Assembly (NCBI RefSeq): GCF_033026475.1
Contig: NC_090205.1
Span: forward strand, 5,909,544-5,973,543
Source: Channa argus
Taxonomy: Eukaryota
Reading direction: 5' to 3'
Length of the DNA: 64,000 nucleotides
The notes under the pieces are model-generated. The model had not been told where the DNA came from, ran no database searches, and saw nothing but the letters and a program-made list of their open reading frames with translations. Positions 42,901 through 64,000 of the stretch are shown in pieces. Each line of letters starts with the position of its first letter. Position 1 is the stretch's first letter. Made by a program: the position numbers and the translations under genes.

Positions 42901-45900
42901 TTATAGAATTTTATTGTGACTGCTTAGCAAGTGCATACTTGCCTCTGCCAGGAATTTCCAATCCCTGTGCAGCAGAGGCCATGCACTACCTACTATTGAA
43001 AGGTGTTACTTTTGTGTCTAATTATTTTCATAGTACTCGGGCAAATGTTGTCACATGTTTTTTTTTAATTATATATTTCACTTTAGATTGAGATTTAAAC
43101 ATGGAGAAGTACTGCATTTTTAACCAAACATGGTTAAAAATGCTTATTATTTAAGGGCTTATTATTAACGTACATAAGCCAAATGTGCAAAAGCTCAAAG
43201 TAAAACCGCATTCAGAAGACTGTACATATTCACTGCTTCTTCCTCCCTTGACAGATGCCATGTTCTATATTTGAACATGTGTGTCGAGATGTTCTGGTTA
43301 TTGTGTGTGTCACCGGGAAATAAACATGTTGTGGATGATGACCTACAAACTCCTGATTTTTTTGCTGCTTTGTTTGCTGATTTACTTCAGACTGTCACTG
43401 AAATCCCAAAAGGTCAGAGAAAAATGAAAAGTTGGTGCCAGCTCCTTCTCTGTGGGAGACCAGCGAAATTATGATGCCATGCGGTGCGGTGATGTTTAAC
43501 CAAGCTACACACGAGCGGCAGCAGCAGGACTGCAACCTGGATGAGCTGTAGACCTTTGTTATTGTCCCAAAAAGGAATAAAACCGGCTCCACTGGATGAC
43601 GTGCGTCTTCATTCCAAGATTTTAAAAAATGTTGAGATGTTGAGCTGAAAAGGTGCTTTCCATGTAGATGTCCAACATGCAAAACAGTCTCTTGCTTACT
43701 TCAGACTGCTGCACAAATTTAAAGTGATTCGAAAAATTTTGCGAGACTATTAACTATGAACTATTACTATAAACTGTAGGTGGTTTGTACCAGCTAGAAA
43801 GTAAATGACCAAACGATACATGTAAGCATTTGGTGATATCTAGTGGTGTAAATGTCATCTCAGATGAAACCCACCCGGGACACGCTCTGACTATTCCCCT
43901 GCCATAAGTCATGTGAGAAAAGGTGACCACCATCTTGGTGCTTGGCACCAAAAGTGGTGCAGACTCAACAGGTACCTACTTACCTATGTGGGGTTTCAGT
44001 AAACGGCCTTCTTAGTCAAATCAAACAACATAAATGCGTAAAGTTATTTTATTTAATTTATTTTATTTTTTTATGTTGAGCAAGTGTTTTGGACTGGACC
44101 AGTGTGTCTGTCTGATGTGTTTCTAATCATTTTTGGGCAATAAAAGCAGGTTTCAGACTTGCACACGTTACCTATGAGCAGATTAGTGCCTGTGTGACAA
44201 TTGTTGACGATACAATTAATTGAGTCCTTTAACTATTTATTTGGATGTCATTCCTTTTAACTTGAAATGCACCACCTTCCTGTAGAAAAAACACACCCTG
44301 ATACTCCACCAAGAGACACATTTATACTGAAAAAGATGAGAAAAATGTTGCAATGTGCCTCAAGGTCAAGTTAACTCTCTGGAGTGTTGACATTCTGCGC
44401 TAATGAAAATGTAGCATTAGAACAATACCTTTCAGCAGTGGTGTCAGGTACTGTTACAAATAAAAGGGTAAAAGTCTGGGTTGTTTTGGAGACGAAGCCC
44501 AAGAATAATAAGTGTCCATCTATAATTAAAGCGATCTTATAACAAGACTGAATTGGGAAAAAAGAGGTGCAGTGAAAATTGTCACAGCAAGTCCTCAATT
44601 ATCGCTCACTGCAGTATCGGGCTAGTGTTATCTTTCTTATTGTTAACGAAGTGTACCAACAAGTTTTGTCTGTGATCTATGCCTTTTATGTAGTCAGTCC
44701 CAGTTTTTATTTATAGAGGGCAGCTCACAGTCTTCCTTAGCCACTGAAAGCAGAATTAGGGTTTGCAAGGCAGTGAAGGTTTCCACCCGGTTGCATCATA
44801 AAAACGCATTATTGGAAGCCTCATTCAACACAGTGCACCCTAGCGACGTCTGTTGATGAGGGAAAATATAGAATAAAATAAAACGACTCGTGACACGCTG
44901 TGTAACGTGCAGAAATATTCATATCTATGAACTGATCATCATTTTCCAAAAGCCTCACTGACTCACACAGTCAGAAGCTCTTGCCCTGAGGTTAGTGATA
45001 CTCTGATATCAGTGTGCCAGAAACTCTTGGCTCTCGATACAAGTGTTTAACTTGTTAAGCCGCTAAACAAGGAATTTCAGGAGTTTAAAAAGCTTGGAGT
45101 TAAGCCACGAACAGATTAAAATTAACCAAATACCACCAACCACCATACAAGGAAGACTTTTTTAAATTATTTTTTCTTTATTGATCTCAGTGGGAAATAG
45201 TTGTTGGACAGCTGCACATGCATGAGCTGCAAGGACATTTGACATGAAGCCAGGAGGCTCATGGACAGTAAGTTTTGCAGACAACTGCTCTTCAAACTGA
45301 GGCGCAGCTGCTTTACTGTGACAAAACGGTAACACGTTAAAGACCCAAGTGGTCATGAACGTGCCATTGAGGTGCCATTCAATAAAATCTTCTTCCATCA
45401 CATTCCCCACTCGCTTCGGGTCCATTAACGCCACCAGTCACCAATTGCCCATTAGAACACTTTAAACACAATGAGCTGGTTTTAACTAGAGATAAACACT
45501 GAATCTCCAAAGCTTGTTTAACCTTTGTGAAGTTACTGTTTCAACAGAGTGGGGCCTCACGAAGGAACAATTTTGTGTTCTTACTTAAATTTTTCTCATT
45601 AGTGGAGCTCCCTGATATCCAAATGATTAAGGCACACACCACAAAATTGCAGTGTCTCTTCTTTAAATGTCCGCTCTCTTCTATCTAATGATGACCAAAA
45701 AAAAAAAGCCCCCATCTTAATTGTGAGATTCATTTCCACATGAAGTGCACATTCATGAGATCATTAACTTACCAACAGCCCTAAAAGGATCACGTTACGC
45801 TGCCTGTTCTGCTTTGTTTGTGGGAAACTTTAAAGTGTAACACTAAACAATGTCACGCTGTGGAGCGTGTGACACTGGGAATTATCGGGAATTAAGCAAA

Positions 45901-48900
45901 CCAAAACGAAACAAATTCAGTCCCTGGTACAGAAATCGGAGCTTGTATCAAGGCCGATGGCGTCTGCAGCTTCAGTATCACTGGTGCTTCAAAAAGTTGT
46001 TCACTGAGTTCAAGAGCTGTGAAAGCCAAAATGTTCTCATAATGACTATTAGTCTCCAGTCAGATCATGTTGTAACTCAAATGAAATGATAAATATTAAC
46101 CACAAAGTTAAAAGACATCAGTGAAACCAGGTCCTGACTAAGACACATCAATATTGAGTGTCTGAAATAACATTTCTATCTAAAACCTTTGCTCACCATA
46201 TCTATTATTTACAGCTACAATAACATCTACACCTGATGCAGCACTTTTGAATTACTACTGTTTTAACGATTTAAAGGCTTTGTTGACTTTTATTGCACAG
46301 ATATGAGATTTCAAAAGCTTAAATCACATTTAGAATCCAAACGAGTTTAGTAATATAAACCTCATTCAACACACAAAAAAAAATAAGTTAAAACTAGATA
46401 GAAACCAGAGGATGCTGTTCACATGCTGGATTTTAAGTTAACACACAGATACTGCATGTTGATAACCACATTATCTTTTCAAGTCAATTTGGACATTTTC
46501 TTTATTTCAGATTTAAAAAATCAGTGGATGTTGCATTTTAGGATCAGATATTTTGGCAATAAACCAATAAAATATGTTTTACTGGTGCATTCAGTGTCAT
46601 GTTGGTGTGACTCAACAAATATGTTCATTCAAAATATCTAATCAGAGTATTTTGCTCCTGCAAACACATATTTGCTGTTGCAAATCAAATGAAAAAAATA
46701 ATAATTTCAAGGAGACATGGTTCTCCAGACAGGTTATAATGAAAGAACGACCATCTGCTACAAGCTCTGACAAGCTATTGGACATTATTCTGTATGGCTC
46801 CATAGTCGGTGTGACAAAACCTGCCTGAGCTGTTCATCACTGGTCATCTAACTAAGCCACTCAGGTGTGAAGGGAAAAGGTGCAGTGAACATGTAATATA
46901 AGGTAGAACCACACATTGGTGGAGGCATCACTGCGTCAATGAAAGCAATATCCCAAAATTGTGAAATTTAAAATTTTCTGTTTATCATGTAACTTTTTAT
47001 TTGACTCAAACAAAAACTAATTTCTCCCATTTTCCGTCTTGTTTCTGTGCCCAAAACCTTTGTTTCTTTTCACAAGAGGCCCTGGGCAGCACAGAAAAGG
47101 TAGTGGACTGTTGGCCTTGGCTGGAAGTTGTCAACTTTTTCTGGAAGTTGGCCTCTTTAGACTCCTTGCAGGGCTCATCACTTAGACCGATGACTGTCCA
47201 TATAGTCTCTAACCATAACCATCCACAGGCCAACGTCCATCTTTAGCTGAAATTGAAAACACATTTCCTGCCAAAACTTGTAGTCTACTATCTTTTTCTG
47301 CAACCAGTAAGTCCTGATTTTCACTCCTAAAATACAAAATGTAGTGTTTAAGAATGTTACTGTTTCCAGATGACAGATACATGTGCATACTGCATATGGG
47401 ATTAACGCACTTGAAAACATGTTATATGTGACCTGATGTGGAGGTGGGAGGTGGCAGAATTAGTCTTCTATGGTCTGATGGTCTGAAAGACTCGAAGACT
47501 CTAAGTCTCTAAGACTAAGAACAGTAAACATGGGTTGGAGACGGTGGGATGGTGGGTAATGGGATTGCTCCAAAACTTCAAGCAGAAATTCACGGATTGG
47601 TTAGGAGAACCTCGCTCTAACACCTTTAAATGTGAATGCACCGATTGCACCTGCTGTTCAATGAGTCGGGCCACTGGAGGCTTTGGCAGCACCTGTTTTC
47701 AGGTATAATTAGTTTTGGACCAGTTTTCTTCTAAAATATTTTTGAAATATAGTCGCGTACCGACTCGTAGGAAAAGCAGTAACTGTTGACAGAGGCATCA
47801 AAGTTTTTGTTACTGATTATTATTCAACCAGGACTGCAAAACCTCTCACAGAGGAAGAGACAGACACCCTAGAAACCCACTACCTGTTCCCCACTCAGAC
47901 TGTCCTCAGTGGCCTCTGTCGCCATATTCTGACAGCTTCTCCTCCCACAAGTTCAGTCCCCAAGATAACAAGGGGTGCCTGACCCTTTGGACTCTCCTCT
48001 CAGCCACATCGCTGATGGGCTCCGACACAATCTGAGCTGACAGAAACATGAGGCAGGGTGGAGGGAGGAGAGCAGCCTGACTGTAATGCCATCCGCCTGG
48101 AGAATTGTCAGCACATAACGACACAGGCCTCTGAGTTTTTTTGGTCATCACTGGCAACAGGCTTCTTTTAAAACACACGCCAGCCTTTTAAAGTCTAGAT
48201 ACCCAAGCTAAAACACATCCCAAACTGTCTGAGTGTAAAATCCCCTTTGGAAAGAACTGAAAAACTGTGCGGATATGAAAACTGTACTCTGTATGCTTGT
48301 GCTTCTGAAGTCTACAGTGTGTGAGTTCTGTGGCAGCAGATAGGATCTGAGTGTCGTGTGATTCTGTTGTCACCACATGCTGCTGCAGACAGCTTTCAGG
48401 CAACAGACTGTGAGGACATGCTGAAGGTCTTCCGCACTACATCAGACTGCATCTGGGTTCAACTCTATAAAGCAGGGAGACACCACCACAACTAAAAATA
48501 AAACCTGCACCACCAAGGGCCTCAAAGTAAATCAAAACAATGGGCTGTGCAAGGAAATACTTGTGTTTATAACAGAAAAGTCAGAAGTAGGTTTCAGTTT
48601 GGTTTGCTACTGCCACATGGAAGCGTGTCTCATTCACAGAACACTATACATGTGGTACCAACACACCCAGGTGTTGACCACCCAATGAATCCTCCACCCA
48701 GGCTTTAACAACTCCACCCAATGAATTTGGGAGCGAAAAATGAAAATGAAATCCACCAGAAAAAACACAAACAATTACAATAAGCCAACAAAAAACAAAA
48801 TAACAAAATGTATCATACCTCATATTAAAGGTTACACGGACCCTCATCTGTCAATGTCTAGCTCTTAAAGGAGAGTGTCCATCCTTTTTGTCATAGTCTA

Positions 48901-49348: not shown

Positions 49349-50669
49349 ACCCTTACCTGAAGTTCCTTGCCCTAACGCAGTCTTTGTGTATATATAAAGT
49401 CTCTCCCATGGAGCGTTCAATAGTGACACCAAAGTGTAACCGTGGCATCAATGTGATACGTAAAACACTGCGCGGTTTGACGCTTCGGGAAGCGCAATTA
49501 TCTGACACTGTGAGATGAGAACGTGTTGAACCAAATGACTTTTTGCTTTGTGATCCAGTTTTATTCGCTGGCTTAGATAAAAAGTTCTTAGACCTGCTGT
49601 CACGTATGGTTTGAGGACTGGTGAACCATCGAATATCATAAAGATGCTCAGGAGTCTGGATCTTAACCAGCGTGTTCTTTCTCTATTCTTTACTTTTATG
49701 ACTTTCATGTTGTAAAATGGACTGTTTTACAGTTTTTGGTTGGTTTTTTCTATTGGTTTTTTTTTTCATCTTCAAGAGGCCTGAAGAAATGAAGTTAACA
49801 CCAACACTTAATGGTTAGTTTGAAAATTGGCACCTTCAAATAAAACACAGCTTGGAGGCAGTGATTATTGTTTCACTTCCAAGGAGAAAAAGTGTCAAGA
49901 TTACAACAAAGCTACATGTCCTTTGTTCAAGTCTACCCACCTCAGAAGAACACTTTAAAATGCTTTAAAATATAGTGTTTTACATGTTTTGGAGCCTTTT
50001 GTCAAGCAAATTTCAAGTCTACTGTAATGATACTGATAAATAAATGGACTGAACAGAAGGTCACGGTTCTTTCTCTAAGACCACCCGATGGGTAAAGATT
50101 GCATGTCTCCTTTTTTAAACTTTGCAGCAAACTTGTGCAAATGGAACATTGTTCTAATCCTCAATCGCTCCTGTTTTGTTAACGGATGGCAAATTTTTCC
50201 TCCTCATTTTGAAAATAAGTTGGTTGTTCACTGAAAAGAAAAGTTATCTTGCAGACGAAAATGAACTTTTGTGGGCTAAGAAAAATCTTGTTATACTTTT
50301 ATCTACTGTAGCTAAACACGCAAAAATAGAAATGGAACATGAGGATGGGCCACTGACAAAGCCATGAACAAAGAAAAGCACCCAGTGGAGCCGGAGAGAA
50401 AACAGGAAGAGAGGGATTGATGTCAGATTCTGGTTCAGGCAATTCCCGTCTGTGACTCACTAAGAGCACTGAGAGCACTTCAATTCCCACCAGATTCCAA
50501 CATTTCTCATATGTAGGTTCTTATTTATATCCTGTCTTTTCCACGCAAAAGTTGAAATTATGCAAATTTTATGTGGGAAGGACACTGTACACTGACTCAC
50601 ACTCGAAGAACAGTTCATTAATGTTTTTTTTTTCCACACACTATCCTCCCACTCATCCACCCACCTTCA

Positions 50670-50691: not shown

Positions 50692-53119
50692 ATCACAGTG
50701 ACACAAACATGCATACAGTAAGACTGGGAGGAGAAAATGGCCAATCTGACAAATGAATAACGATCTGCCAACAACGGCATTTTATCGTGGTACAATCAAC
50801 ACATGCCAATGGAATCTCTGTGATCAGTAATTGAAACAGACAAAAGGGGGCTCGCTTTGATCTTGACAGACGAAGACCCTCCGACTGAGTCAGGTTGTAA
50901 TGAAACGTGGAGCCATGATGGTAAATATTTAGCACGTTTGCAGTTACAAGACTGCAGTGTGTCGAGCTTTGCACAGCCGAAGAAAATGGGGAAAAACACT
51001 GTGAATACTGCAATAAATTGGTATGGAAATATTCAGAACAAAGTATGAGTTATGCATTTCAAATTTCTGTATTTTATGTAAAAGTATCAAAGCTCAAGCA
51101 TTCTTAAAGCACATATTAATGAATATAATATTATCGGATTATAATTATTAATAAGATAATGTGTTTACCACTTCAGTGTTGCAGCTGCTAAATGGCATTT
51201 TGATAATTCTATATTCTGTAGCTTATATTTATTATGTAATTAGAAACTACAATGTTTTCCCCTGAAATTATGTGAAATGAAAGCATGCAGGAGCAGAAAC
51301 TGAAAATAGTAATAATGGTACTAATGCCTTAAAACTGTGCTGGGTTACTTTGCTCCTCATTGGAAAAATACAGAAAAATAAGCCCAGACTGAATTTCTTT
51401 TCTGCCAAACATGTACATGTGTGCGCACAGTAATGTCGCCCCCACACTAGTCGAGATTGCAGCTATTAAGTGTCTTATGGCGAACTCACTCCTAAATGGC
51501 ATTTACTGTAAATCGTGTCTGCACATGTACAAACATGTAGCTTAACTAAGGGGTAATGTGAGCAACAACTGTTGTCCTGTCAGCCACATGTACACTTGTC
51601 AATAATTTCATCGCCTCCCCTTGAGAAGTGTCCTAATGAAGCTATAGGCTGCACATAGATAAAAAAACGAACACCCACCATGTTTCATTGATTAAATGTG
51701 TAAAAGGGAAAAAAAAAAAAACTTTCAAGGACACTTGTAGTTTTCAGCGACCTCACATCTGAGATGGACTAATGTAGTTCTCACCATAAGGGACACCTTC
51801 ACAGTTTATAGGAGCAGCCTTGAGGGAGAAGGCCAGCCAGAGTCAGCCGCTCTATGGGCTTGAGGGAGGCCTGAGTGGGCCTGCAGCTGAAAGGGTGCCC
51901 TTCATTTCTAGACAGCGTGCCCTTTTTAAAATACAATCATGGGTAGAGTGTGAGGGGCAGCCTTACTGTTGTCTGTCCCCATTGCTACATTAACTCACAA
52001 ACATGGCCTCAAGAGCCTCATCTGGGCACAGTGTAGCTGGAGCCCCGTGGTCAAAAACATGACCTTCAACTCCCCGTTCTAATCAGGCTCCTTCTCAGCA
52101 TATGGATATACAGTTCTCTGAGTGGATGGGAGGCAGAGCATTGGTTCGTCCGTGTCTGCAATATTCAGTATGGGAGGAAAACACGCAGAAGATACTGCAT
52201 AATGTAGGCAATTAGAGAGAGACTATGGTTTAGGAAACACCTCATCCCCTAGAAATGATGCTGCATACTGGTAAATTGGTTTCCTAATTTGATAGGAAAT
52301 ATAATTGCTACCTGGATTATGTTCACCGCCAGTGGTTTTTCCATTTAAGGAAGTGTTTTTGTTCTGCACACATGTTGCAGAGAGCTTTTGAGTTGCCCTT
52401 TGGGATCAGTTTGGGGGAATATTGTGGTCTCCATTAAAAAAAAAAAATTGCAGAGAAAACCAGTTGGCAGTTGGATTCATAAATAATGTTGATTCTAAAA
52501 CATGAACGAATCCAAGAAGTATTGCATTTCCTGTATCGGTGTTTCAAATTATTAGCATATGAATTTAATTGCGGTGACACTGATGCATCACATTCTTCAA
52601 GGCTGCTCCGACGTCCGCTGTAAGCATTTAGCAGGAACGTTGTCAAATGGTATTTAACGATGTTCTGCCCAAACTTGGTGTTTTAAAGCATGTGCACCCT
52701 CCGTCACTCGTCCTTTACGGAGCATAACGGATACTCCGTACACATAGTTCTCCAAATACTGTGAGTTATTTAATGCGCCATTTATCAATCTTGAGAGATT
52801 TGGCAGTTACACGAGACCTCAGGCAGTCAGAGAAGTGCTTTTTAGGGACATTCTGGTGTTTAAACATTATCTTAAATTAAATCACATGCTGGCTAAGGAG
52901 TAACCATTAAACAGCAGGCGACTGCCAAGCATCCTACCTGCAGCAGTGGCCAGAAACGTGCAAACTGGAACAAACTGTGCATAATTTACAGACAGGAGCA
53001 GGCAACAAATGCTTTTAGTGAGCAGCGGGAAACTCGCTGTGTGTTCTTTATAGTATTATTTTAACTTTGCCTCAGAACTCCTTTATAATTATGAGTGGAC
53101 CTGTTGTTCATTCTCACCA

Positions 53120-53125
53120 TTTATT
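53120..53125 (-). terminator. Polyadenylation signal AATAAA for the GRHPR-like transcript (3'UTR about 53100..53177)
   Basis: On the minus strand AATAAA (plus-strand tttatt at 53120-53125) sits about 55 nt downstream of the TAA stop. The expected cleavage site is about 15-25 nt further 3' (around 53095-53105). Confidence 0.5.
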
Positions 53126-53177
53126 TATAGACAAAATATTCCATCATTTCCAGCAGTAACATCAGTCAGCCTAAACT

Positions 53178-53340
53178 TTAACAGTTTGGTTGCTTGACTT
53201 CATTTGGAACAGGTAAACCTTTCACTGCAGCCAGGGCATTTTTGACCATCTTCTCCAGTATTCTTTCTGCTGTGCTGTAGGTATTGATGCCGATGTGGGG
53301 GGTGAGCAGCACGTTAGGCAGGCCAAGGAGTGGATGATCC
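53178..53340 (-). CDS. GRHPR-like terminal coding exon 5 (catalytic His in LTPHIG), stop TAA at 53178-53180
   Basis: The acceptor is ttatgcag|GGATCATCC. It encodes (R)DHPLLGLPNVLLTPHIGINTYSTAERILEKMVKNALAAVKGLPVPNEVKQPNC*, matching human [45 protein letters not shown]. The summed CDS over the 5 exons is 990 nt, giving 329 aa (human GRHPR is 328 aa). Confidence 0.8.
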
Positions 53341-53416
53341 CTGCATAAGATGAAGTAGAAGAGCTGTTAGTATTCAATTTAAGTCTATTTATTCAGTATA
53401 GCACATTTTTTTCAAA

Positions 53417-53513
53417 GAGGTGAGACCTTGGTAAAGGTTCGGGATGAGTCACATCCAATGCTGCAGCACGAATTGTTCCCGACTGGAGAGCTTTGACTAA
53501 GGCATCTTGATCC
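53417..53513 (-). CDS. GRHPR-like coding exon 4
   Basis: The acceptor is tgtctcag|GT. It encodes [32 protein letters not shown](R), matching human [33 protein letters not shown]. The donor is CCAAG|GTCTCA, a weak but GT-containing site. A 93-bp intron precedes the exon and a 76-bp intron follows it, both compact as is typical for fish. Confidence 0.75.
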
Positions 53514-53606
53514 AGAACTTGACCTGAGACATGACAAAAGCATTATTGCTTATTTGAGCCCTTGTAAGTCAAGATCAATGCGGTCTAGAAACCACGCCGC
53601 CCTCAC

Positions 53607-53785
53607 CTCTGCTGATGTTGATAAGTATTGCTGTGGGTTTCATGAGGGACAGCTCTCTGTGTCCAATGAGGCCTGTTGTGTCCGGAGTTAATTTGACAGC
53701 GATCGTGACAAAGTCCGAGCGCCTCAGCAGGTCACTCAGGCTCTCGCAGTAACTCGCACCAACTGCCTGCTCCTCTGCTACACTC
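53607..53785 (-). CDS. GRHPR-like coding exon 3 (catalytic-domain part, ...INISRG)
   Basis: The acceptor is ggtgttcag|G. It encodes (R)SVAEEQAVGASYCESLSDLLRRSDFVTIAVKLTPDTTGLIGHRELSLMKPTAILINISR(G), matching human [58 protein letters not shown]. The donor is AGAG|GTGAGG. The ORF 53575..53793 covers this exon. Confidence 0.85.
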
Positions 53786-54121
53786 CTGAACACCAGGAGA
53801 AATGAGTGTATAAGTTACTGGACACATACACCAAGTGTTCCAGACGTACAGATCATTGAATCAATCTTTTTTTTTTTTTTTTCTTCAGTTAAAAAAGTAC
53901 AAATCAGTGCAATGTTCACTGTACCTGTTAATCATTAGTTGGTTAAAGTTAATCATTTCTCTGAGCAGCAATGTTTGATTTTGGATGTTTAGTGTCGCAT
54001 GCTGTCACAATGTCAACAATGCATATTTGAATGTAACATATGTGTAATACTACATACTGTTTAAAAACATTAAAGAAACATTTTGATGTGTTTCTTTTTA
54101 CCTTTTTGTCCTGCTGTGATA

Positions 54122-54293
54122 AAGGATCTTCATTTCAAACCCTTTGCTTCTTTGGGCGATTTTGTAACCGACTTCTCCCATTCCAATGATCCCCAGTGTC
54201 GACCCTGTGACTTCAACTCCCATCAGTGATCCAGGTAAGCTGGTGGTCATTGGGTCCACAGCAATTTGATTACCTATCAGGAAAAAAGTCTAA
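54122..54293 (-). CDS. GRHPR-like coding exon 2 (NAD-binding Rossmann GxxGxGxxG)
   Basis: The acceptor is ...tttttcctgatag|GTAATC. With phase 1 it encodes [57 protein letters not shown], matching human [48 protein letters not shown]. The donor is AAAAG|GTAAAA. The reading frame is continuous with exon 1, and the exon 1/2 junction position matches the human protein exactly. Confidence 0.8.
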
Positions 54294-54812
54294 ATGAGCA
54301 TTTTATTTATTTATACCAGAGCCCTGTTTTAAGGGAACCTTTGACCTACCTGTGTTTATTTAGTGCCTACATGTTACACTAATGTCTTTATACCTAAATA
54401 TAACCAAAGCACAGTGACTGTTCTCCCTTTGAAAAATTGGCAACACTTTGATTTACAGCCCGTGACTTACAGGGTAAGTACAGTGAACTTACTATGTACT
54501 TGTAATCACTCGTGTAACGGTGTAACTCCACAGTACCTATGAATACATATTTGTTCTAACCTGATAACAATAAGCAAACTTTGGAGAATAACAGCGTAAC
54601 AAGATGACAATAAGAAAAATGCCTACAGTGTAGGCATTTTGTAGAGAAGCGGTTCTTATTAATTAATGTCAAGTTTGCTTATTGTTACCAAAGTCTCAAC
54701 AATTATGTATCCATAGGTGGAGGAACACCGTAGCTATCTCTTTTAGGATGCACTAATATCGGTGTCAGTGTTTGGTTAAGGGATTCTCGTTTGAATGGTT
54801 TTGTCTACTCAC

Positions 54813-55191
54813 CTTCCAGGATCCTGCGAGCCGATGCCAGAAGCAGACCCATGGCTAAATCTGCTGTGGAGTCACTAACCACACCAGGCGTGTTGGCCAA
54901 TTTGACCCCAAGGCTATTGATATATGGCACGTCCACGTGATCGATGCCCACTCCTCCACTGGCCACCACCTTCAGGGAGGGAAGCATTCCAAGCAATGCA
55001 GGCTCCGCTTCAGGGAGGAACTTCCATATGAACAGAGCCTGGATTTTGGGGCCATGAAGCGCTGGATTTTGTAGGAACTCTTTGTAGCAGATAATTCGGA
55101 AGTGCTGTGTCAATATGTGCGACAGCTCCTGAAGGTAACCACACTCCCCGCCCACCTCTGAGATCAATGCCCATGGCTTGTCCTCTTCCAT
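54813..55191 (-). CDS. GRHPR-like (glyoxylate reductase/hydroxypyruvate reductase-like D-2-hydroxyacid dehydrogenase), coding exon 1
   Basis: The minus-strand ORF 54805..55251 translates to ...MEEDKPWALISEV...LKVVASGGVGIDHVDVPYINSLGVKLANTPGVVSDSTADLAMGLLLASARRILEG. This aligns colinearly with the N-terminal half of human GRHPR (…LKVISTMSVGIDHLAL…[28 protein letters not shown]). An AAG|GTGAGT donor follows the exon; the GT lies at 54812-54811 on the plus axis. The start is taken at M21 (ATG at 55189-55191) because it aligns with the human M1 region. In-frame upstream ATGs at 55234-55236 and 55249-55251 remain possible alternative starts. Confidence 0.8.
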
Positions 55192-55286
55192 TAGCTGATG
55201 ACATAAAAGACATAAAAGGTCTTGAAGTGACAGCATTGAGTTTTTGGTCATTTTAGTTGATTTATCATGTGAATTAAATAGTCTTA

Positions 55287-55810
55287 CCTTGTCAAGATCC
55301 TGTTCCCAGTGTTTAGTTGGTCCCTGATTTCCCCAGCTTCGCTTCTTGTCTCCAGCTTTTATTTTTTAGCCCCTCAGCCTACTTCCTGTCTTCAGTGTCA
55401 TCAGACCCTGATCATTTTCACCTGCTCCTCTGTCCTTTCAAACCCTGCTTGTTCGTCTTTGTTACGTTGCATGCCTCTGGACACCCCACCCACCGCGCTT
55501 TTCCCCTTTTGGACTGCTGTTTCTCTGGTCCACCTGTTCCCCGTGTTTTACATCTGTCCGTTTGGACTGAGGTTGCGTTATTTTTGGTCACTGTTTAGCT
55601 GCCTCTGTTTTACACTCGGTTTGATTATTAGTTTATCCTTCTTTAATCCTTTACTGTTCATCCCGTCCCTGTGTGTGCACAGCTCTGCTGGCTTTGTGTG
55701 TTCATATGTATGTTTGTGTGTAGTTGTGTATTTGTCCCATTTCCCTCTTTCTCCAGCTCAGTTGGAGCTCTCTTTGCATCTCCTTACTTGGCCCTTAAAA
55801 AACAGAAAAC
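55287..55810 (+). mobile_element. Interspersed repeat copy B (unclassified TE fragment, possibly LTR-like) abutting the 5' end of the GRHPR-like gene
   Basis: Copy B (gatcctgttcccagtgtttagttggtccc…ctccagcttttattttttagcccctcagcctacttcctgtcttcagtgtc…) is clearly homologous to 33570..34150 (gattctgttcctggtgttgagtttgtccc…ctccagcttttattttgtagcccctcagtttacttcctgtcttagtgtc…). Both copies are in the same orientation. The ORF 55309..55815 is the low-complexity, pyrimidine-rich translation of this repeat and is not a gene. Confidence 0.7.
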
Positions 55811-58299
55811 ACTAACCTGTGACATATCTAAACATTGTTAGATTTTGTATTTAGCCTATGGTGAATATTAAATGTGTCATTCTGTACAAAACTCTAACCT
55901 AAAAATTTAAAGAAATTACATAAATTACACATTTCTTTTCTGTTCTGTTCTCTCATTTCATTGTAGTCATATGTCATTTTTGTAAGAAAGACTTCACCTT
56001 TTTTTCTTTTTTTCACCTTTTTGTAATCACATGTTATTTTGCTTTTTGAGAAAAGTTAAAGATTTGACACAGCAGGATAATGTAAAAACCAAACGAGGGC
56101 TGTTGTCGCCCTGTGGTTTAACCATCCACTGCTCACAAACGTGTTATTAATAAAAGAGCTTATGCAGTAAACAGTATGCAGTCTATATTATATAAAGGGT
56201 GATGTGCATTGAAGAGTTTTTATTGCGTTGAGTTGTTTGTGGAAAAAATACAAGAGACAGTTTATTATTCAAAGCAGTCATGTTAAATGTCTTAATGCAT
56301 GACTGGAGGGCACCTCTATTTCTTTCTATAAAATAATTTATACTACAACAGATGCACTGAGTGTCTAAGATAGTTACAATACTAGTAATTAAAAGGTTCT
56401 AAAACAGCAAAAAAAACAAAAAAAACTCACTCCGACTTATAAACACAGTCTATAAACTTTAAAAAGATTAAGAAAAAAACTTCAAGCTTCCCACTATACC
56501 GCACATGCTGGAACACACAATATGAACACACATTGTACATATTTATTCTAGTACTATCTAAAAAAGAGATGGACTTTAATGCTTATTTTTGATTTTATGG
56601 TTATTATCATCCGAACCAAAATGAAAAGTGGCACCTCAAAAAAATATCATCAGCATCAAAGTTGACGACAGTGATGATTATATCTTAATGTAAGCTAAAT
56701 GATCACTCGTGGCGGGGCATTGGAAGGAAAACACATTAAAAGCATAAAAATATTATCCTAAAGCATTAGTGATTCAGATCTACGGGAGAGACAAACACGC
56801 GACATGAAATAGATGAGGTCCTGAAATAAAAGGGGTAAAAGCAGGTCACCATACTGTAAGCTTAGATGGATCACAGGGTGGACGTACTGCGCATAGATGG
56901 ACAAGGGGCCCATGGGACTGAGGATCTGACGTCTGACCGAGCCCAATAAAACATGTGACCAAAAATAATGAGCCATATCCTGAAAGTATCCCAATCCACT
57001 GAAGACCATCCACCAAACGTCCACAGAACAGACACAAAACAAGTAAAAACAGGACACATGGCCCCAAAACATGCATTTATTAATCAAAACCAGACAATAA
57101 ACTTAATCACTGACAAACTTGCACTAATTCAGTAAGAGAAGAAAACCACTGGAAACATATTGTCAATACAGCAAACGAGTTGTGCAAGAGTGTTATCAAT
57201 TGCCTGTCGTATCTATGGTGCTGTCACCATCACTACTGGATGTTTCTTATTAATATTTTTAATCCACTTACTCCGTCCTCAGATGACCGCAGAGGCCTTG
57301 CAAACTGTCGCCGTGCATTTGAGAAAGCTTTGTTTTCCTGCTCCAGCGTACGGGCATAGCATACAAACGGCTGCATTGTTGGACAAACAGGCCTGTCAGG
57401 AACACATTTTATGCACGCACAGACCCATATCTCAAATTGCCTTTATTACAAATCATATCGTGACATAGAAAATATAAATATGACATACCAATAAATTGCT
57501 AAAGTGTGGGTGTAACTGTCTGTTGGAAATTATGTTGCTATACCACTGAGCTGTTTTCCCAATTATAGTGTGGTGGCAATGCAATCACTAAAAGAAACAA
57601 CCTTTGGTCATTATTTTAATAGAGAACATAATCCAGCCGCAATTATGTCTCCTTCAAAAATATTGGCTGTTGCAAATTAGTTATATACTGTAGTATAAAC
57701 ATAACTTCAAAGTGACAGGAATGTGAAGGCACACCTATAAACCGAGCGACCCCCTTTGTGTAATTGGATTCTCTTATACATTGTAATGATGTTTGTTGTT
57801 GAGTTCAGTTATTCAGTATTTTACATTAGAGAATAAAAACCTTGCCTCTTATTGCGGCCGGTAATAGGAGGTTGTTAACACCATTTTTACCCAAGCTTCA
57901 GCCGTGTCTCCCTGTGCAAAGCCCTGAGAATGACAAATGCCCAATCAGTATTCTTAACCTCAGTGTCGTAGGACAAGTCAATATTATTTTGTTGGTATCG
58001 GGTGGATGTGAGAGATAAAGTTGCCTAACGATGCAGCAAAAATATTTCACATGAATGCAAAAACTTCACACTCCCACCTTTAGCTCGACTTCACTGCGAA
58101 CGCTGCACCGCCGTCCCTCGAACTGCAGCACTGCAGCAGAGGGAGGTTTTCTGCACAAGATGAAGCAGGAGGAGCTAAAAGGAGCGAAGGGGGTCGGTTT
58201 TTATTCATGCACCCTTTGTGCTGGGTTCTGCTGATGACTGCTGAAAGTCCAAAAAAGGGTACAAGGTGGTCGTGACTGAATGAATTATAGGAATAGCTC

Positions 58300-60260
58300 C
58301 TTACATCTTATATACTGTGTTCTTCTGCAGACTAATGGTGTGTTACAGCTGGGTCTTTTCACCTCAAGGTAACATGTGTTGCACTTCTACAGTTGAGTGA
58401 ATTTGAGGCAAGAACTTGGTAAAAGTTCAGGAAGAATCTCATCTAATGTAGAAATTGTTCCATCCACAAGTATAAAGATCAGTTTTTCCAATGTGTTTTT
58501 TTAATAATCTCTCCTCAACACCAAGCACAATGTTCCCCCCTCTGCTGATGCTGCTGCGGGTTCAGCTCTCTGTGGCTAAGGAGGTCTGTTGTGTCAGGTG
58601 TCAGGTAACAGCCAGCGTAACTAATTCCTCAGCAGGTCATCAGGCTCCCGCAGTAAGTCGTCCCACTGACTGCTCAACGTCTGTGTTTCTGAACAGGGGT
58701 AAAGAATGAGCGGATTCACGCTGTTTTGTTACTTTACTATTTTGGATTTTCCGGCTCCCTAATGTGATAATAATGATTTATTAAAAAAGCAAGCGACTTT
58801 TTCTTTGACCCTCTTTCCAGTCTTTATTCTTATTAGACCAGTATTATGGGATACTTTCTTGTAATTATAGATACAGGGGTCATAATCACAAGATAAAGCC
58901 TCCAGTCTTTTTTCTTCATATAGTGAATGAAATGCCCTTGTGCATTTTCCTGCCTTGTTTTAAAGATTATGGAGTGAAAATCTCGGTCACAGTACATTGA
59001 CAATTAGTACGACAAACAAACACAACAGATCATAAAACGACTCGTAATACTTGTAATACTACATCATGGAATGTGCATCATTTTTGCACATTTTGATAAA
59101 TAAAACTATTTGTTGACAGCTTATCTTTTGAGACATTTATCATCTTTTGCCCTCAAGTAGCAGTTTATACATAAGTACAGAACCATTTTAAATGTAATCT
59201 TGGCGCTGCTGTTTTGGTCGAGGCAGCCCAGAGGGAGTGTCAGCTCAAAAGCAACCCACACACATCGTCCAGAAATGCTGTTTATGCTCAGAAGTGGACA
59301 CTCAGAACCCTTTTACCTTCTGGTCCTGTTATGATACAGGATTGTTGTGTCAAGTCTTCTGCTTCTTTGAGCTCTTTTATAACCAGCCTTCCCTCATATT
59401 ACTTCCGGTGAGTGGACGTAACAGGAGCCACTCAGTGGAATGAGAACATGTTTGTGCTTTGCTATGTGGGTGGTTACACTCTCCAGCTAATTAAAGGTCT
59501 GTGAATGAAAATTGTTTTTATTCATTAATCTCTGGCTCTCATGGTGTTTTTTTCTTTAAGACACCATCCTCAGTTTGTGTGACCAGAAAAATCAAGCTGT
59601 CTTTAGACCAAATTACAGCCCCGTTCCATGGATGGCAATGATTCTATCGTGTTACGTTAGACTGAAGTATTTAATCAATTACTGCAAATCTTACTAAATC
59701 TTTCTAGTACCTTTGTCGGTTCTCTGACTTTTCATACCAACACGATCTTGTCAAACACATTCATTTCTAAATACCTGCAAATATAGCATTCCCATCAGTC
59801 TGAGCTGCATTTTGAGTTTATTGTGAAACGTTAACAGCATCCTAACACACAATATAAATATCTGCCGAGCATAAAAAATACAGTTTCCCACATTTTGGGC
59901 TATTTCTCGACTTCCTTCCTCTCAACAATGTTACAAGCCAGTGCCTGAAGCAAGCCTATGGCAGCAACTGCAGTGGCACTGCTGACCGCACCTTCACCCC
60001 TCGACTGGTAATGAATGGCACGAACAGATGCTCACCGCCTGCCCCTCCATTGGCTACCACCTTCAATAAAGAAGCAAGCTGAGCAAGTAATGCTCAGCTG
60101 CACAAACACGGGCTGGATTTCAGGTCCACGTACTGTAGCTGGAGGGGTTGCAGGAATTCCTTGCTGCAGTTGATTTGAAATTGTTGTTTCATTATCTCAA
60201 TTACCCTGTCAAGGAAACCTTGCTCTGAGATCGGAGCCCACGGCTTGTTCTTTTCTATTA
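58300..60260 (-). pseudogene. Tandem GRHPR-like pseudogene (decayed paralog directly 5' of the intact copy, same orientation)
   Basis: The exon-1 homolog at about 59912..60258 translates to ...IEKNKPWAPISEQGFLDRVIEIMKQQFQINCSKEFLQ..., compared with intact ...MEEDKPWALISEVGGECGYLQELSHILTQHFRIICYKEFLQ. The start codon is ATG→ATA at 60256-60258. A roughly 15-nt deletion creates an in-frame TGA (…SSPCLCS*). The VGIDHVDV motif is replaced by AGGEHLFV. There is an in-frame TAG, and the GTGAGT donor is lost (ggaaggaagtcg). The exon-2 homolog lies at about 59340..59430 (tctgcttctttgagctcttttataaccagccttccctcat versus tttgcttctttgggcgattttgtaaccgacttctcccat). The exon-3 homolog lies at about 58540..58690 and carries internal deletions. 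The exon-4 homolog lies at about 58412..58480. Confidence 0.75.
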
Positions 60261-60649
60261 CCTGAGAGGATGGAACACAAGGGTCACTCAAAAGCTGCCT
60301 GTCATGGAAGAGTGAGGGTGGACGACTCAAACGTGAAAAGTTGTTCCTCACATTGGCCTTTATTACAAGTAATGCAATAAGCACGAGCTGATATTCATCT
60401 TAACTCAAAGCTGTCCTCTACACAACCCCGTCTCAGTGAAATAAAGTTCATTTTTTATTCAACTAAAGGGCAGCACTACATTACATTGTCAACAACACAC
60501 ACTTGGCGTTCCAGCAGTTAGCAGCACTGTACACTGAGCTGCTTTTTCCAAAAGTTGTTACAGTAGATATTTACAGCTGTGTGTGGATTCCTGCAGTGTG
60601 TGCGAATGTGGGATAAAGCACGATTAAGGCAGGCTGGCAAAACACTATT

Positions 60650-60693
60650 ACTACTACTACTACTACTGCTACTGCCACTACTAATGCAGTGTC
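60650..60693. repeat. (TAC)n trinucleotide microsatellite
   Basis: ctactactactactactgctactgccactactaatg. The poly-Leu ORF 60579..60815 is an artefact of this repeat. Confidence 0.9.
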
Positions 60694-63600
60694 ACAGTAT
60701 TGCATCACTGTGTGTCACCTTTCAAAGCTTTCGTTGCATTAGTTTCCAGGTTTTAAAGTCACTTGACCGTCTCATCAGAAAAAAGACAGTGAGACACGTA
60801 AATGGCTGTATATGAATTAAAAGAATTATTCAGGGTAAATATGAACTTGCAAATGCTGTCAGTGGGCTGTTCCTGCTCTGGGAGAACTAAACAGCTAATA
60901 AATAAATAATTTCTGAGGCTGTTTCCCCAAACCCATCACAGCTTTGTCACTGGGATTAGTGAATAGAATAATGTTGTCATTTTTTTCTACATAGCGAGCC
61001 AGCTACCTGGCTTTGCCTAGGAAAAACAAAAGCAAAAAGCAGAAATAATGTGAGCACTAGGCTGAATACAGTGAAACAACATGGGAACTGATAATCAGGT
61101 TAATGCAAATAACATAAACTAAAGTTTAAAAAACAACAAACTTTTATTAGTTTTTCTGTGGACACAGATGGCTGCATGTAGCAGTGTCTAAATCTTTTGG
61201 TTGTGGTCTGTTGCAATACTGTGTCCGTGGGACTCAATTGTCATTTACTGTAGGACGGAGTGTTTCTTAACGTCAAGGAGAAATTGTTGCTTGTCGTTGT
61301 TTGTTTGGAACATGATGCACATTCTTGTCTTTTTATACTTTTTATAAGGGTCTGTGTAACACAGGCTAAACATTTCTACAAGTTACAAACTCCATTTCCA
61401 GAAAAGAGAACAGCTCATTGTAAAACTTTGAATAATTTGTGAATTTCATCATCTAAGGTACAACATATCTATAAACCAAGAATCTGCGGGTCTAGCAAAG
61501 CAAATAACTTATATTTTAAACAAAAATGGGAAATATTCTCACAAATATTTGAATTTCTCACTTTGAACATTTGATTTTGACTTTGTGTTAGATGCAATAA
61601 AAGTTATGTTTCATATCATTTACAAATCACTGCATTTTTTTTTACAGGTTACAGAGGATAGCAGCTTTTGCGAGGTTTGAATTTGAGCACTGTAAAAGGC
61701 CTTTGTTGATGAGAGTATGAACATGAAATCTTGCATTGCTACTTGGCTCTTCACTGTGACTCAGATGAGATTTATGATGTAGGATGAACACAGAACGAAA
61801 TGTAAACTTAATATTGATCATAACATACGCGTGGGAGGAAATGAATAATTGTCATGAAGATGCCTCCAAAGTAAGAAGACATTTTAGAGAAGCAGACCCA
61901 CGAGGGACGAGGGGAAGATTTTAAATAGCATAAAACCTTGATTCAGTTGTGGCTCTGGAGTCGAGAAACTAAAGGTACAAAGATGAGGATTAAACACGCT
62001 GGTCTGTTTTCATCTGCCCTCACATCTGAACTTTCTCCCATTGCTTTGGTTTTTTTTAGCATTAGTGACAGAGGTTTGTCTAAACGAGAGCTGATCCCGA
62101 CCATGCTGTGTATTCAGATTGTTCTAAAAGTAAGAGTTTAGTAAGGTGCAGAGCTGTTTGAGGCCTCACATCAGTAAACGCTTGTAATGTAAGTGTCATT
62201 CTACAGAGCACGGGTAAACAACATATTAAGCATTTAAGGGCTTGCTGAAGTAATTATACCCAAACAGACGTTGTAACAGCATGAAACAAATGGAAGAATA
62301 AAACTACACTATGCATAAAGAAAATGTCAGCAAAGCTTACTGTAGCACCTAACAGTGGTGCCCTTTCTCTTTTCTTTTTTCTTTCTTCCCCCTCAAATTT
62401 TGATTTCAGTGAATTTCCCTCTTTCTGTTTGGGATTGAGCTCTATGGGTCATGGGAGAAGGTAAAACAGTGGGAGACTGATGCTGCTTCAGCAGTAATGT
62501 AGATGTTGTAGCGTGGTGGTGAAGTCTACTGCATGTTCTATAACACAATCAATGGTCTTAGAAGCAGCCAAAGTAAATGTTTTTATTAATATTGATTAAG
62601 AGGTAACATGCAAAAATGACAAACAACTACAGACAAATAAATTAACGTAAGACATTTAAAGTCTTTGTCAGTCTGTGGTGTGTGGACAGGGTGAAGGACG
62701 TTTCATCTCTCTGAATCGAGGGACCTGCTTTCTCATGATCCATCCATGATTCTGTCACCAACATCTCCTGACATACAGGAGGAGAGCGTGTTATTTTTAC
62801 ATCTGCCCAGTAAACGCCATCCATGTGTTCCCTGCACACCTGCTCCTCATTCCTTCATTACCCAGATCACTTTCTTTGCTCTGTAGCTTTAGCAGGTACC
62901 ATGTTTTCGTTATGTATTTAACTTTTAAAATCGGAACAGTTCAAAAGTTTGGCTTTCATGTTATCACATCTGGGAGCAAAATACAAGCAAAAACCATCCT
63001 GCGCTAATTAATCAATTCAGTTATTGATCGGAATTTCATCTCCGCAGAGCAGTGCAGCCATCGTGGTGATTATCCCTTACATGTCTGACTAATTTTTTCT
63101 CGTTAGGCTTGCTATTGTTTCTCCTCTGCTTATTATGCGTCTCTTTTGATAAGTCTTGCTGATGGGGGACCACACATTTCCATAACCCATCCCCGCTGTA
63201 ATATGAAAAGAAAGAACGGCTGCACGCTTCAATAATCTTTTCTTGTCTTGAGTCTGCAGACACACTCTGCATTTGGACCATAAAACCTAAAGGCTCCATT
63301 TGCCGTTCCCCACTGCTAAAGCCCCGCTGAGCTGACACAGTCTCTCCGTTTCATTAATGAAAAGCAAAAGGAATGAGGTCCTATATGGATTTCATACTTA
63401 AGCAAGACTGCAAAACTGTAGGAACATAGGAACGGAATAATAACTAACATCCGAAAAGTTTTTTTGTAAATGTATTTGGTTTGAATCATCACTTTAAATC
63501 TATTATGACAAAACAAAATGCCACAGGGATAGTGAGTTAATAGTATATAATTATGCATTCCAAAATAATTATGAAGAGCAAGAAACATTTGTGCTTTTAG

Positions 63601-64000
63601 TCTATCTCACTCTAATCATGAAATATTGTGTTGAAATTACAGTATCTCTTCTTTCTGCTAATAACAGACTATTCTTGTTGAATGCCAGCCCTTCTCCCAG
63701 AATACAGCTCAAATGTATTTAGTCTATTCATTAGGGTGACAGCAGGGCACGTTTAATCGGCCTGTGATTTCCTTTTTCACCAGGATCTTCATTATGCAGA
63801 GAGAAAGTGACCGGAGACTTTAGTTTAACATGCAAGAACATTAAATAAGCTAAGAAAAGTTCTGTCAAGTCAAGGCCAGGTGAAGGTTTGCGGGAGTGAC
63901 GTTTCTTCAGTCGATCTTCGGCACAGTGACTGGTAAAGCTGCTGCTCTTGTGACAATATAAACAACGATGCTGCTCCACAAGCTTCGCAGCATCTCTCTC

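Follow-up and report, generated by a model that had tools for sequence, protein, structure and literature searches.

Among the closest described relatives of the genes considered here are human GRHPR and archaeal and bacterial glyoxylate reductases (PDB 2GCG, 2DBQ), together with a 'probable 2-ketogluconate reductase' (9M0T). The catalytic residue set of this family consists of Arg, Glu and His, and stands beside a GxGxxG dinucleotide-binding motif. Tandem gene families have their classical pseudogenes of the unprocessed (duplicated) kind, those of the globins being an example. As for tandem GRHPR-like genes in teleosts, I found nothing specific in the literature.

This report concerns a stretch of 64,000 nucleotides from the snakehead Channa argus (the window; NC_090205.1, positions 5,909,544 to 5,973,543), which contains an intact gene of this family, here called gene A, and a broken relative upstream of it. 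An earlier note, made from the sequence alone, described the broken copy as a tandem, unprocessed pseudogene of the GRHPR-like family lying 5' of a functional copy, which stands, and as a young duplicate of that neighbour in early-to-mid decay, which does not, given its affinity with another paralog and the lesions that it has in common with Channa striata.

Results

The intact neighbour

The spliced translation of gene A agrees from end to end (100% identity) with the annotated protein P0001 of C. argus, which is 329 aa long and named 'glyoxylate reductase/hydroxypyruvate reductase'. Both 2-Hacid_dh domains are present (PF02826, E 7e-59; PF00389, E 6e-18), and the GxGxxG motif and the TPHIG histidine in exon 5 are both intact. 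Among solved structures, glyoxylate reductases and human GRHPR come nearest; the matches to 2GCG, 2DBQ and 9M0T (E 4e-54 to 4.5e-59) span the catalytic and NAD(P)-binding domains and are a likeness at the family level only. Gene A and its paralog B, described below, are by family putative GRHPR-like 2-hydroxyacid dehydrogenases, a designation that implies no substrate assignment beyond the family level.

A degraded copy of exons 1-4 upstream

The earlier note placed homologs of exons 1-4 about 5 kb 5' of the intact gene, on the same strand and in the same order. A BLASTN comparison of 52900-55500 with 57500-60800 bears this out with four colinear same-strand matches (Table 1), so the similarity is not restricted to exon 1. 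Both copies lie on the minus strand with the pseudogene upstream, and their start codons are 5,067 bp apart. Exon profiles made from 11 intact fish copies and run with nhmmer over both strands of the whole 64 kb match gene A and the four pseudogene places, and nowhere else. The similarity is well clear of chance, with shuffle z-scores of the pseudogene exon alignments between 9 and 98; the local alignment of exon 4 scores 9, and exon 2 as a whole aligns to positions 7-172 of exon 2 of Enoplosus armatus B with a z-score of 22.7.

Table 1. Coordinates of gene A and of the pseudogene remnants in the window, with the matches that support them.
Feature	Position	Strand	BLASTN match (gene A vs pseudogene)	nhmmer exon-profile match	Remarks
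Gene A, intact neighbour	53178..55191	minus			5 coding exons, 329 aa
Gene A coding exons	55191-54813, 54273-54102, 53785-53607, 53523-53427, 53340-53178	minus
Pseudogene coding exon 1	59920..60258	minus	54829-55198 vs 59936-60265, E 4e-19	60257-59921, E 7e-58	339 nt vs 379 nt in intact copies
Pseudogene exon 2	59317..59498	minus	54096-54181 vs 59311-59397, E 3e-12	59393-59317, E 1e-12	GxGxxG motif for NAD(P) binding wrecked; splice acceptor (AG) and donor (GT) kept
Pseudogene exon 3	58540..58688	minus	53650-53811 vs 58563-58715, E 6e-20	58682-58541, E 8e-22	149 nt vs 179 nt in intact copies
Pseudogene exon 4	58415..58511	minus	53417-53460 vs 58405-58448, E 9e-6	58463-58415, E 2.5e-4	secure alignment for 3' half only, 58415-58463
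5' end remnant of B gene	60259..60613	minus			homology to Enoplosus B upstream region

Two further statements of the note did not survive closer alignment. Exons 2-4 were said to be visible at the DNA level only, but tblastn finds exons 2 and 3 as protein (E 8e-5 and 0.02, respectively). The introns were said to be collapsed, but exons 1-4 with the introns between them occupy 1,844 bp; in gene A they take up 1,765 bp and in Enoplosus B 1,937 bp. The spacers at the ancestral intron positions between exons 1-4 measure ~421, ~628 and ~28 bp (gene A has 539 and 316 bp for the first two). The acceptors of exons 1-3 and the donor of exon 2 are kept. A processed pseudogene (retrocopy) of a family member would account for the homology and for nothing more. 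Intron-sized spacers, surviving splice signals and homology to Enoplosus B that reaches into the promoter-proximal region all contradict it, leaving this origin with next to no probability.

No homolog of exon 5, the exon of the TPHIG histidine, could be detected for the pseudogene, either with the exon-5 profile across the 64 kb or by local alignment. A match to the exon-5 acceptor region (53332-53365 vs 58142-58176, E 0.07) was dropped. As local z-scores at the expected place are at most 3 and the profile is silent, exon 5 is treated as deleted or unrecognisable. A third copy farther upstream was considered on account of an exon-5-like stretch at 60532-60641 (z 2.7-4.6) and rejected: nhmmer misses it, and the stretch matches the promoter-proximal region of Enoplosus B.

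Upstream of the former start codon, BLASTN aligns the pseudogene with the region upstream of Enoplosus B (73% over 78 nt, E 2e-6), and an alignment of the 400 nt upstream of the two start codons likewise recovers this homology. In order, the remnant consists of a TATA-like block (TGTAAATATC, ~60566-60575), the presumed 5'-UTR exon, its dead donor (G/TTAAGA at 60398-60403 vs CAG/GTAAGA in Enoplosus B), the former intron, and an acceptor CAG kept directly before the GTA-ATA start. Judged by its likeness to Enoplosus B, this segment would once have held a promoter and a 5'-UTR exon.

Lesions and coding capacity

The damage to exon 1 listed in the earlier note is all present. The start codon is ATA (60258-60256) in place of ATG, the frame read uncorrected from it meets TGA at codon 55 and TAG at codon 101, and the exon 1 donor has changed from GT to GA. 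The exon has also lost 12, 16, 1 and again 16 nt in four deletions and gained 5 nt in one insertion. The note was right, too, that the VGIDHVD motif is degraded (GVGIDHLD has become GAGGEHLF), but not in labelling it a dinucleotide-binding signature. We take VGIDHVD to be a motif of the catalytic (substrate-binding) domain; the true GxGxxG site (GIIGMGEVG / GIIGMGGIG) sits in exon 2, where the pseudogene has EVI*xGRxG with a 1-nt deletion.

The remaining exons fare no better. Exon 2 has a ~13-nt insertion and 1-2-nt deletions, and exon 3 deletions of 7 and 20 nt and a donor changed from GT to GG, all common to C. striata. Three 1-nt deletions in exon 3 are specific to C. argus, and the exon 4 donor is GT>TT in C. 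argus and kept in C. striata. Of the four recognisable donors, only that of exon 2 survives (those of exons 1, 3 and 4 are gone), and indel events number more than 20: the decay is advanced. The longest stop-free run on the gene strand is 101 aa, so there is no long ORF and no full-length frame to be recovered with other exon boundaries. Unlike its relatives 2GCG, 2DBQ and 9M0T, the pseudogene no longer matches the family profiles; its frameshift-corrected translation of 212 aa is without a Pfam hit at E<=0.01. When a profile was made from the exon-1 ORFs of C. argus and C. striata and searched against 5.8 billion proteins, no similar predicted protein came up, and Rfam has no match within 52000-64000. 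The pseudogene encodes no enzyme.

Could the copy nevertheless be a coding gene with different exon boundaries, its lesions being errors of assembly or sequencing? C. striata does keep the ATG, and an ORF of 136 aa runs from it, but this ORF is off the ancestral frame after about codon 42 and does not survive unbroken in C. argus. Two species, assembled independently, show the same large deletions, and the ruined GxGxxG, the missing catalytic-His exon and the lack of a Pfam match to the corrected translation speak against it as well. I regard this as scarcely credible.

Kinship with a second paralog

A search of the same locus in related fishes for an intact second copy was successful in two species. 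Enoplosus armatus (L001) has B (P0088, 10001-12388), annotated 'probable 2-ketogluconate reductase', followed on the same strand by A (P0006, 14115-15912), the two with identical exon lengths of 379/172/179/97/157. Thunnus albacares (L003) has B (P0081, 10001-12563) followed by A (14337-17166). The note's remark that tandem GRHPR-like arrays are known in teleosts thus finds support in the Enoplosus and Thunnus loci only. Intact B occupies the same place upstream of A as the pseudogene, with the same strand and exon structure.

The pseudogene is the ortholog of B. Its exon 1 has a DNA identity of 68.8% with Enoplosus B (counting gaps; 79.0% on ungapped sites), of 62.1% with Enoplosus A and of 59.7% with the Channa A gene beside it. 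After frameshift correction, the translated protein matches Enoplosus B at 69.3% and Channa A at 55.7%. The K2P distances of the DNA are 0.225 to Enoplosus B and 0.39 to Channa A. In neighbour-joining (NJ) trees whose B clade comprises the two intact species only (Enoplosus and Thunnus), bootstrap support for placing the pseudogene with the B copies is 85% for exons 1-4 and 92% for exon 1 alone; the A clade is separate from B with 98%, and the pseudogene joins Channa A in 0% of 300 bootstraps. Exons 2-4 alone give the B grouping just 21%, probably because of gene conversion between A and B, which is visible in exons 3-4 of Enoplosus. Conversion between A and the pseudogene within a species was considered and rejected: neither Channa pseudogene is closer to the A gene of its own species than to that of the other, once it is allowed that C. 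striata A is uniformly the more distant.

These data bear directly on the idea that gene A was recently duplicated and that the extra copy is in early-to-mid decay, so that the divergence between the two would date a young, lineage-specific event. The copies are adjacent, on the same strand and in the same exon order, and exon 1 is still 60% identical to A, all as such an origin would predict. However, the distances and bootstraps just given favour B over Channa A, the B-then-A arrangement exists with an intact B in Enoplosus and Thunnus, and the pseudogene with most of its lesions is present in C. striata. A young duplication is therefore very improbable, and the pseudogene is better read as a decayed copy of B.

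Relics of the B type also lie upstream of A in Micropterus (86.2% identity to Enoplosus B, 78.7% to Micropterus A) and in Mastacembelus (79.7% to Enoplosus B, 68.6% to Mastacembelus A). Mastacembelus has in addition an exon-5 relic, found by the exon-5 profile, and neither genus keeps exon 1. In Betta, B was not found upstream of A.

Timing of the loss

Aligned over the whole locus, C. argus and C. striata are 76-77% identical. Common to both are deletions of 12, 16, 1 and 16 nt in exon 1, a 2-nt deletion, the ~13-nt insertion and a 1-nt deletion in exon 2, both long deletions in exon 3, and the loss of the donors of exon 1, exon 3 and the 5'-UTR exon; the tally is at least nine indels and two coding-exon donor losses. 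Since the pseudogene and most of its lesions are found in both species, inactivation probably predates their split. Loss of the start codon, the first lesion in the note's list, is specific to C. argus and hence a late event.

With roughly nine indels in common and 3-5 private to each lineage, decay would have gone on for long before the species separated. A small stem excess of substitutions at codon positions 1 and 2 suggests instead that inactivation came shortly before the split. The two approaches to dating, by indels and by substitutions, disagree. Between the two Channa pseudogenes, divergence is 0.117, 0.198 and 0.206 at codon positions 1, 2 and 3, first positions differing less than second and third (chi-square p 0.03); for gene A in the same two species, positions 2 and 3 differ by 0.080 and 0.170. 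The sole absolute date obtained is an upper bound, the Parachanna-Channa split, placed at ~29 Ma in PMC12896699.

An island of low divergence around exon 1

Exon 1 and ~140 nt upstream of it are 7-8% (0.074-0.081) diverged between the two Channa species, with exon 1 itself at 8.1%; the local non-coding mean is 14.3% (0.143), and the other exons and introns of the pseudogene differ by 20-38%. Uniform neutral decay does not predict so low a divergence in exon 1. Of equal-sized windows in the aligned 13 kb, 19% are as conserved or more so, and the signal of the island is therefore weak and not that of an outlier.

It is conceivable that the enzyme is dead but that part of its gene has been exapted, the old promoter, former first intron and exon 1 (~60017-60401) now serving as a non-coding RNA exon, as an alternative exon or promoter of gene A, or as a cis-regulatory element. 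Besides the low divergence of the island, the kept TATA-like block and the acceptor retained before the start codon would fit such a role, as would the C. striata annotation P0002 (396 aa), which opens with a pseudogene exon (L002, 10001-10150) spliced to gene A. Yet nearly a fifth of the surrounding windows match the island, the donors of the 5'-UTR exon and of exon 1 are ruined in both species, and Micropterus and Mastacembelus do without exon 1. Nor was there an Rfam match, or an ORF product or transcript-derived protein in the database of 5.8 billion proteins, and the P0002 model may be an ab initio artefact, its pseudogene exon falling in the poorly conserved exon-3 region. On balance, exaptation of some part of the copy is unlikely. 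A narrower proposal is that purifying selection maintains the ~390-bp island of former first intron and exon 1 in snakeheads, where it would act as an lncRNA exon, as an alternative exon or promoter upstream of gene A, or as an enhancer of that gene. This would account for exon 1 being much better preserved than any other part in both species, but I consider the proposal doubtful to a slightly greater degree.

Discussion

The segment from 58415 to 60613 (minus strand) is very probably an unprocessed pseudogene, orthologous to B, the ancient tandem paralog of gene A, which in Channa has decayed. The tandem pair would have arisen before the divergence of the percomorphs sampled here (Thunnus, Enoplosus, Micropterus, Mastacembelus and Channa), and Enoplosus armatus and Thunnus albacares still have B intact. 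In the line leading to the snakeheads, B probably lost its function before C. argus and C. striata separated and then drifted more or less neutrally, acquiring frameshifting indels, stops and splice-site losses until exon 5 could no longer be recognised. Any present function of the copy as a whole seems improbable on this evidence.

The copy should accordingly be annotated as a pseudogene of an old paralog. The earlier note's suggestion that it might help to date a recent duplication has to be given up, the pseudogene being closer to Enoplosus B than to Channa A and having most of its lesions in common with C. striata. Its presence probably also explains the inflated gene model of C. striata, whose first exon lies inside the pseudogene. 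More broadly, of the two GRHPR-like reductase genes in this ancient tandem pair, the upstream one has decayed in Channa, Micropterus and Mastacembelus and is still present in Enoplosus and Thunnus. The case is a small and ordinary one of recurrent paralog loss, and it leaves current understanding unchallenged.

Of the genes with which the Channa copy can be compared, its nearest neighbour is the less close. Gene A (P0001) has the same family membership (PF00389, PF02826), five-coding-exon layout, strand and locus, but it is intact and conserved, and a paralog of the pseudogene, not its parent. P0088 and P0081 are the genes most like the pseudogene in both DNA and protein (79% of ungapped exon-1 sites, 69% of corrected codons), but they are intact ORFs of 327 aa with canonical splice sites, whereas the Channa copy is without a start codon, a reading frame, three donors, GxGxxG and exon 5.

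Finally, the Channa copy is an ordinary unprocessed pseudogene. Like the globin-type pseudogenes, it keeps its intron-exon structure and promoter remnants beside a functional relative, it has frameshifts, stops and splice losses, and its second and third codon positions, though not its first, have diverged about equally. There is no essential difference from these, save that the paralog from which it descends was long functional and is functional still in other lineages; it thus resembles the lineage-specific loss of an old gene more than the failure of a fresh duplicate.

The gene and its decayed relative

The intact five-exon gene (gene A) encodes a product of 329 aa that is 100% identical over its full length to P0001, the annotated Channa argus glyoxylate reductase/hydroxypyruvate reductase, and this match independently validates the gene model. 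The Pfam matches of this protein (PF00389 at 6e-18 and PF02826 at 7e-59) are to the catalytic and NAD-binding domains of the D-isomer-specific 2-hydroxyacid dehydrogenases, and the nearest solved structures, at E 4.5e-59 to 4e-54, belong to glyoxylate reductases, a "probable 2-ketogluconate reductase" and human GRHPR; "GRHPR-like" is a fair family label. A splice acceptor CAG (55194-55192) stands immediately before the start codon. About 0.8-1.1 kb 5' of that codon, a block shared with Channa striata (56019-56320; 12075-12389 of the C. striata locus L002; 75% identity) is likely this gene's promoter and 5'-UTR exon.

Sensitive BLASTN of the gene A region against 57500-60800 returned four colinear, same-strand matches (E 4e-19 to 9e-6), as expected from the earlier note, which had described homologues of exons 1-4 in the order and strand of the intact gene. 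The similarity extends beyond exon 1 to exons 2, 3 and 4 in BLASTN and in searches with one nucleotide profile per exon, built from 11 intact fish copies; across the whole 64 kb these profiles match gene A and the pseudogene only, and shuffle z-scores for the pseudogene exons run from 9 to 98. Exons 2-4 had been thought visible at the DNA level only, but tblastn with protein A as query detects exons 2 and 3 as well as exon 1. Exon 5, which carries the catalytic histidine, has no profile match in the 64 kb other than in gene A. Directly 3' of pseudogene exon 4, at the expected place of exon 5, lies a stretch (58039-58409) that is fairly well conserved between C. argus and C. striata (divergence about 0.12) and in which no resemblance to exon 5 or intron 4 of an intact copy is detectable; one possibility is an insertion in place of exon 5.

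Exons of gene A and the pseudogene, and the stretches most conserved between C. argus and C. striata
Feature	Position	Strand	Gene A counterpart	Evidence
Gene A exon 1	55191-54813	minus		five-exon model, every junction canonical AG/GT
Gene A exon 2	54273-54102	minus		same model
Gene A exon 3	53785-53607	minus		same model
Gene A exon 4	53523-53427	minus		same model
Gene A exon 5	53340-53178	minus		same model
Pseudogene exon 1	59936-60265	minus	54829-55198	BLASTN E 4e-19
Pseudogene exon 2	59311-59397	minus	54096-54181	BLASTN E 3e-12
Pseudogene exon 3	58563-58715	minus	53650-53811	BLASTN E 6e-20
Pseudogene exon 4	58405-58448	minus	53417-53460	BLASTN E 9e-6
Pseudogene exon 1	60257-59921	minus		profile E 7e-58
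Pseudogene exon 2	59393-59317	minus		profile E 1e-12
Pseudogene exon 3	58682-58541	minus		profile E 8e-22
Pseudogene exon 4	58463-58415	minus		profile E 2.5e-4
Conserved stretch	63058-63391			divergence 0.033-0.063 (all six)
Conserved stretch	63408-63742			
Conserved stretch	51758-52091			
Conserved stretch	50195-50529			
Conserved stretch	47878-48211			
Conserved stretch	44790-45124			

Loss of coding capacity

Decay of the pseudogene is advanced. The start codon is ATA instead of ATG, exon 1 read as it stands has an in-frame TGA at codon 55 and a TAG at codon 101, and its donor is destroyed (GT to GA), all as previously described. The reported loss of VGIDHVD is real in that the motif is degraded (GVGIDHLD to GAGGEHLF), but it is not the dinucleotide-binding signature; in this family it is part of the substrate-binding domain, and the GxGxxG motif, carried by exon 2, has been destroyed as well. 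Three of the four donors are lost, exons 1 and 3 have shrunk by a net 40 and 30 nt, and the frameshift-corrected translation has no Pfam match. The introns have not collapsed, contrary to the earlier note: exons 1 to 4 span 1,844 bp in the pseudogene, compared with 1,765 bp for gene A and 1,937 bp for the Enoplosus ortholog, which is intact, and intron 2 is longer than that of gene A. Otherwise the earlier note gave a good description of a real feature.

Stop-free stretches on the gene strand reach at most 101 aa. The C. striata pseudogene keeps its start ATG, from which a 136-aa ORF runs out of the ancestral frame; it is interrupted in C. argus. A profile of the pseudogene ORFs of both species matched none of 5.8 billion predicted proteins, and Rfam gave no match over 52000-64000.

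Orthology to an old tandem paralog

Two other fishes carry an intact second copy, B, directly upstream of A. Enoplosus armatus encodes two homologues of A on one chromosome, P0088 (B; L001 10001-12388) directly upstream of P0006 (A; 14115-15912), on the same strand and with identical exon lengths, and Thunnus albacares has the same layout, P0081 and then a second 327-aa gene. The Channa pseudogene has the position of B in the locus and B-like sequence: its exon 1 DNA is 68.8% identical to Enoplosus B, 62.1% to Enoplosus A and 59.7% to Channa A, its frameshift-corrected codons are 69.3% identical to Enoplosus B and 55.7% to Channa A, and K2P distances over exons 1-4 are 0.225, 0.33 and 0.39 to Enoplosus B, Enoplosus A and Channa A. 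Neighbour-joining trees rooted with a third paralog, "C", located on a different chromosome (copies from Enoplosus and C. striata), place both Channa pseudogenes with the B genes of Enoplosus and Thunnus at 85% bootstrap (exons 1-4) or 92% (exon 1 alone), and unite all A genes at 98%; the pseudogene joins Channa A in 0%. Exons 2-4 alone give the same B grouping at an uninformative 21%. Enoplosus B and A are about 93% identical (92.7-92.8%) in exons 3-4 (L001 11573-11937 and 15247-15609) and only 78-84% identical in exons 1, 2 and 5 (78% in exon 1), a pattern suggestive of gene conversion between these tandem paralogs; such conversion would blur the phylogenetic signal in exons 2-4. The Channa pseudogene is the ortholog of the old paralog B, not a copy of its neighbour A.

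Age of inactivation

The C. striata locus aligns with the entire pseudogene and intergenic region of the window, at 76-77% identity. Both species share deletions of 12, 16, 1 and 16 nt and the donor change GT to GA in exon 1, a 2-nt deletion, an insertion of about 13 nt and a 1-nt deletion in the GxGxxG region of exon 2, deletions of 7 and 20 nt and the donor change GT to GG in exon 3, and a dead 5'-UTR-exon donor. C. argus alone has ATA in place of ATG, an insertion of 5 nt in exon 1, three single-nucleotide deletions in exon 3 and a lost exon-4 donor. Because lesions are common to both species, inactivation is older than their split, which is younger than the Parachanna-Channa split at about 29 Ma (PMC12896699). 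The young tandem duplicate of the earlier note is thus a B ortholog already dead before the two species diverged, a history that is the reverse of young.

Two lines of evidence disagree on how long the copy had been decaying when the species split: about nine shared indels against three to five per lineage suggest a long period, and the small excess of stem substitutions at the first and second codon positions suggests a short one. Since the split the pseudogene has diverged equally at codon positions 2 (0.198) and 3 (0.206), consistent with lost coding constraint; gene A of the same two species gives 0.080 and 0.170.

The 5' end and conserved stretches

The acceptor CAG before the ATA is conserved with Enoplosus B and Thunnus B, and therefore a 5'-UTR exon presumably once preceded coding exon 1. 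Farther upstream, 60537-60613 is homologous to the region upstream of Enoplosus B (E 2e-6) and includes a TATA-like block (about 60566-60575); it would be the former promoter. An (ACT)13 microsatellite (60644-60683) lies immediately upstream, and its C. striata ortholog has AGT/GGT repeats.

Substitution divergence between the two Channa species is 0.081 in pseudogene exon 1 and 0.074-0.077 in 60017-60401 (coding exon 1 together with what was the first intron), below both the non-coding average of 0.143 and the 0.20-0.38 of the other pseudogene exons and introns. Such an island might have been kept by residual constraint, for example through a regulatory or non-coding RNA role, but this is a weak hint and an improbable reading, since 19% of equal-sized windows within the aligned 13 kb show equal or stronger conservation, the donors on both flanks are dead, and exon 1 is not kept in Micropterus or Mastacembelus. 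The lowest divergence in the aligned 20 kb falls in six other stretches (see table), where the C. striata record calls no gene; candidates for their nature are UTRs, exons missed by the annotation and conserved non-coding elements.

In the C. striata annotation, the 396-aa 'hypothetical protein' P0002 has 67 additional N-terminal residues, from an exon inside the pseudogene (L002 10001-10150), overlapping its exon 3 (L002 9983-10099), and a second, small exon shortly before gene A (L002 12405-12461); in the window these exons correspond to about 58665-58500 and about 56000. Either the annotation has been misled by the pseudogene, or these residues hint at transcription that reads through from it into A.

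Fate of B in other fishes

Two further percomorphs carry relics of B. Upstream of its A ortholog, Micropterus salmoides has only B-type fragments of exons 2-3 (L006 7919-8017 and 9052-9132; 86.2% identical to Enoplosus B vs 78.7% to its own A), and Mastacembelus armatus has fragments of exons 4-5 (L004 8794-8876 and 9256-9331; 79.7% vs 68.6%). The 10 kb upstream of the Betta splendens A ortholog (L005) hold no recognisable B remnant, and the Thunnus protein is the only clear second B member found among annotated proteins with Enoplosus B as query. Given these relics or absences upstream of A, and a sole further annotated B in Thunnus, B is an old and repeatedly lost paralog. In Channa, what is left of this ancient tandem paralog is an unprocessed pseudogene of an ordinary kind, at a late stage of decay.
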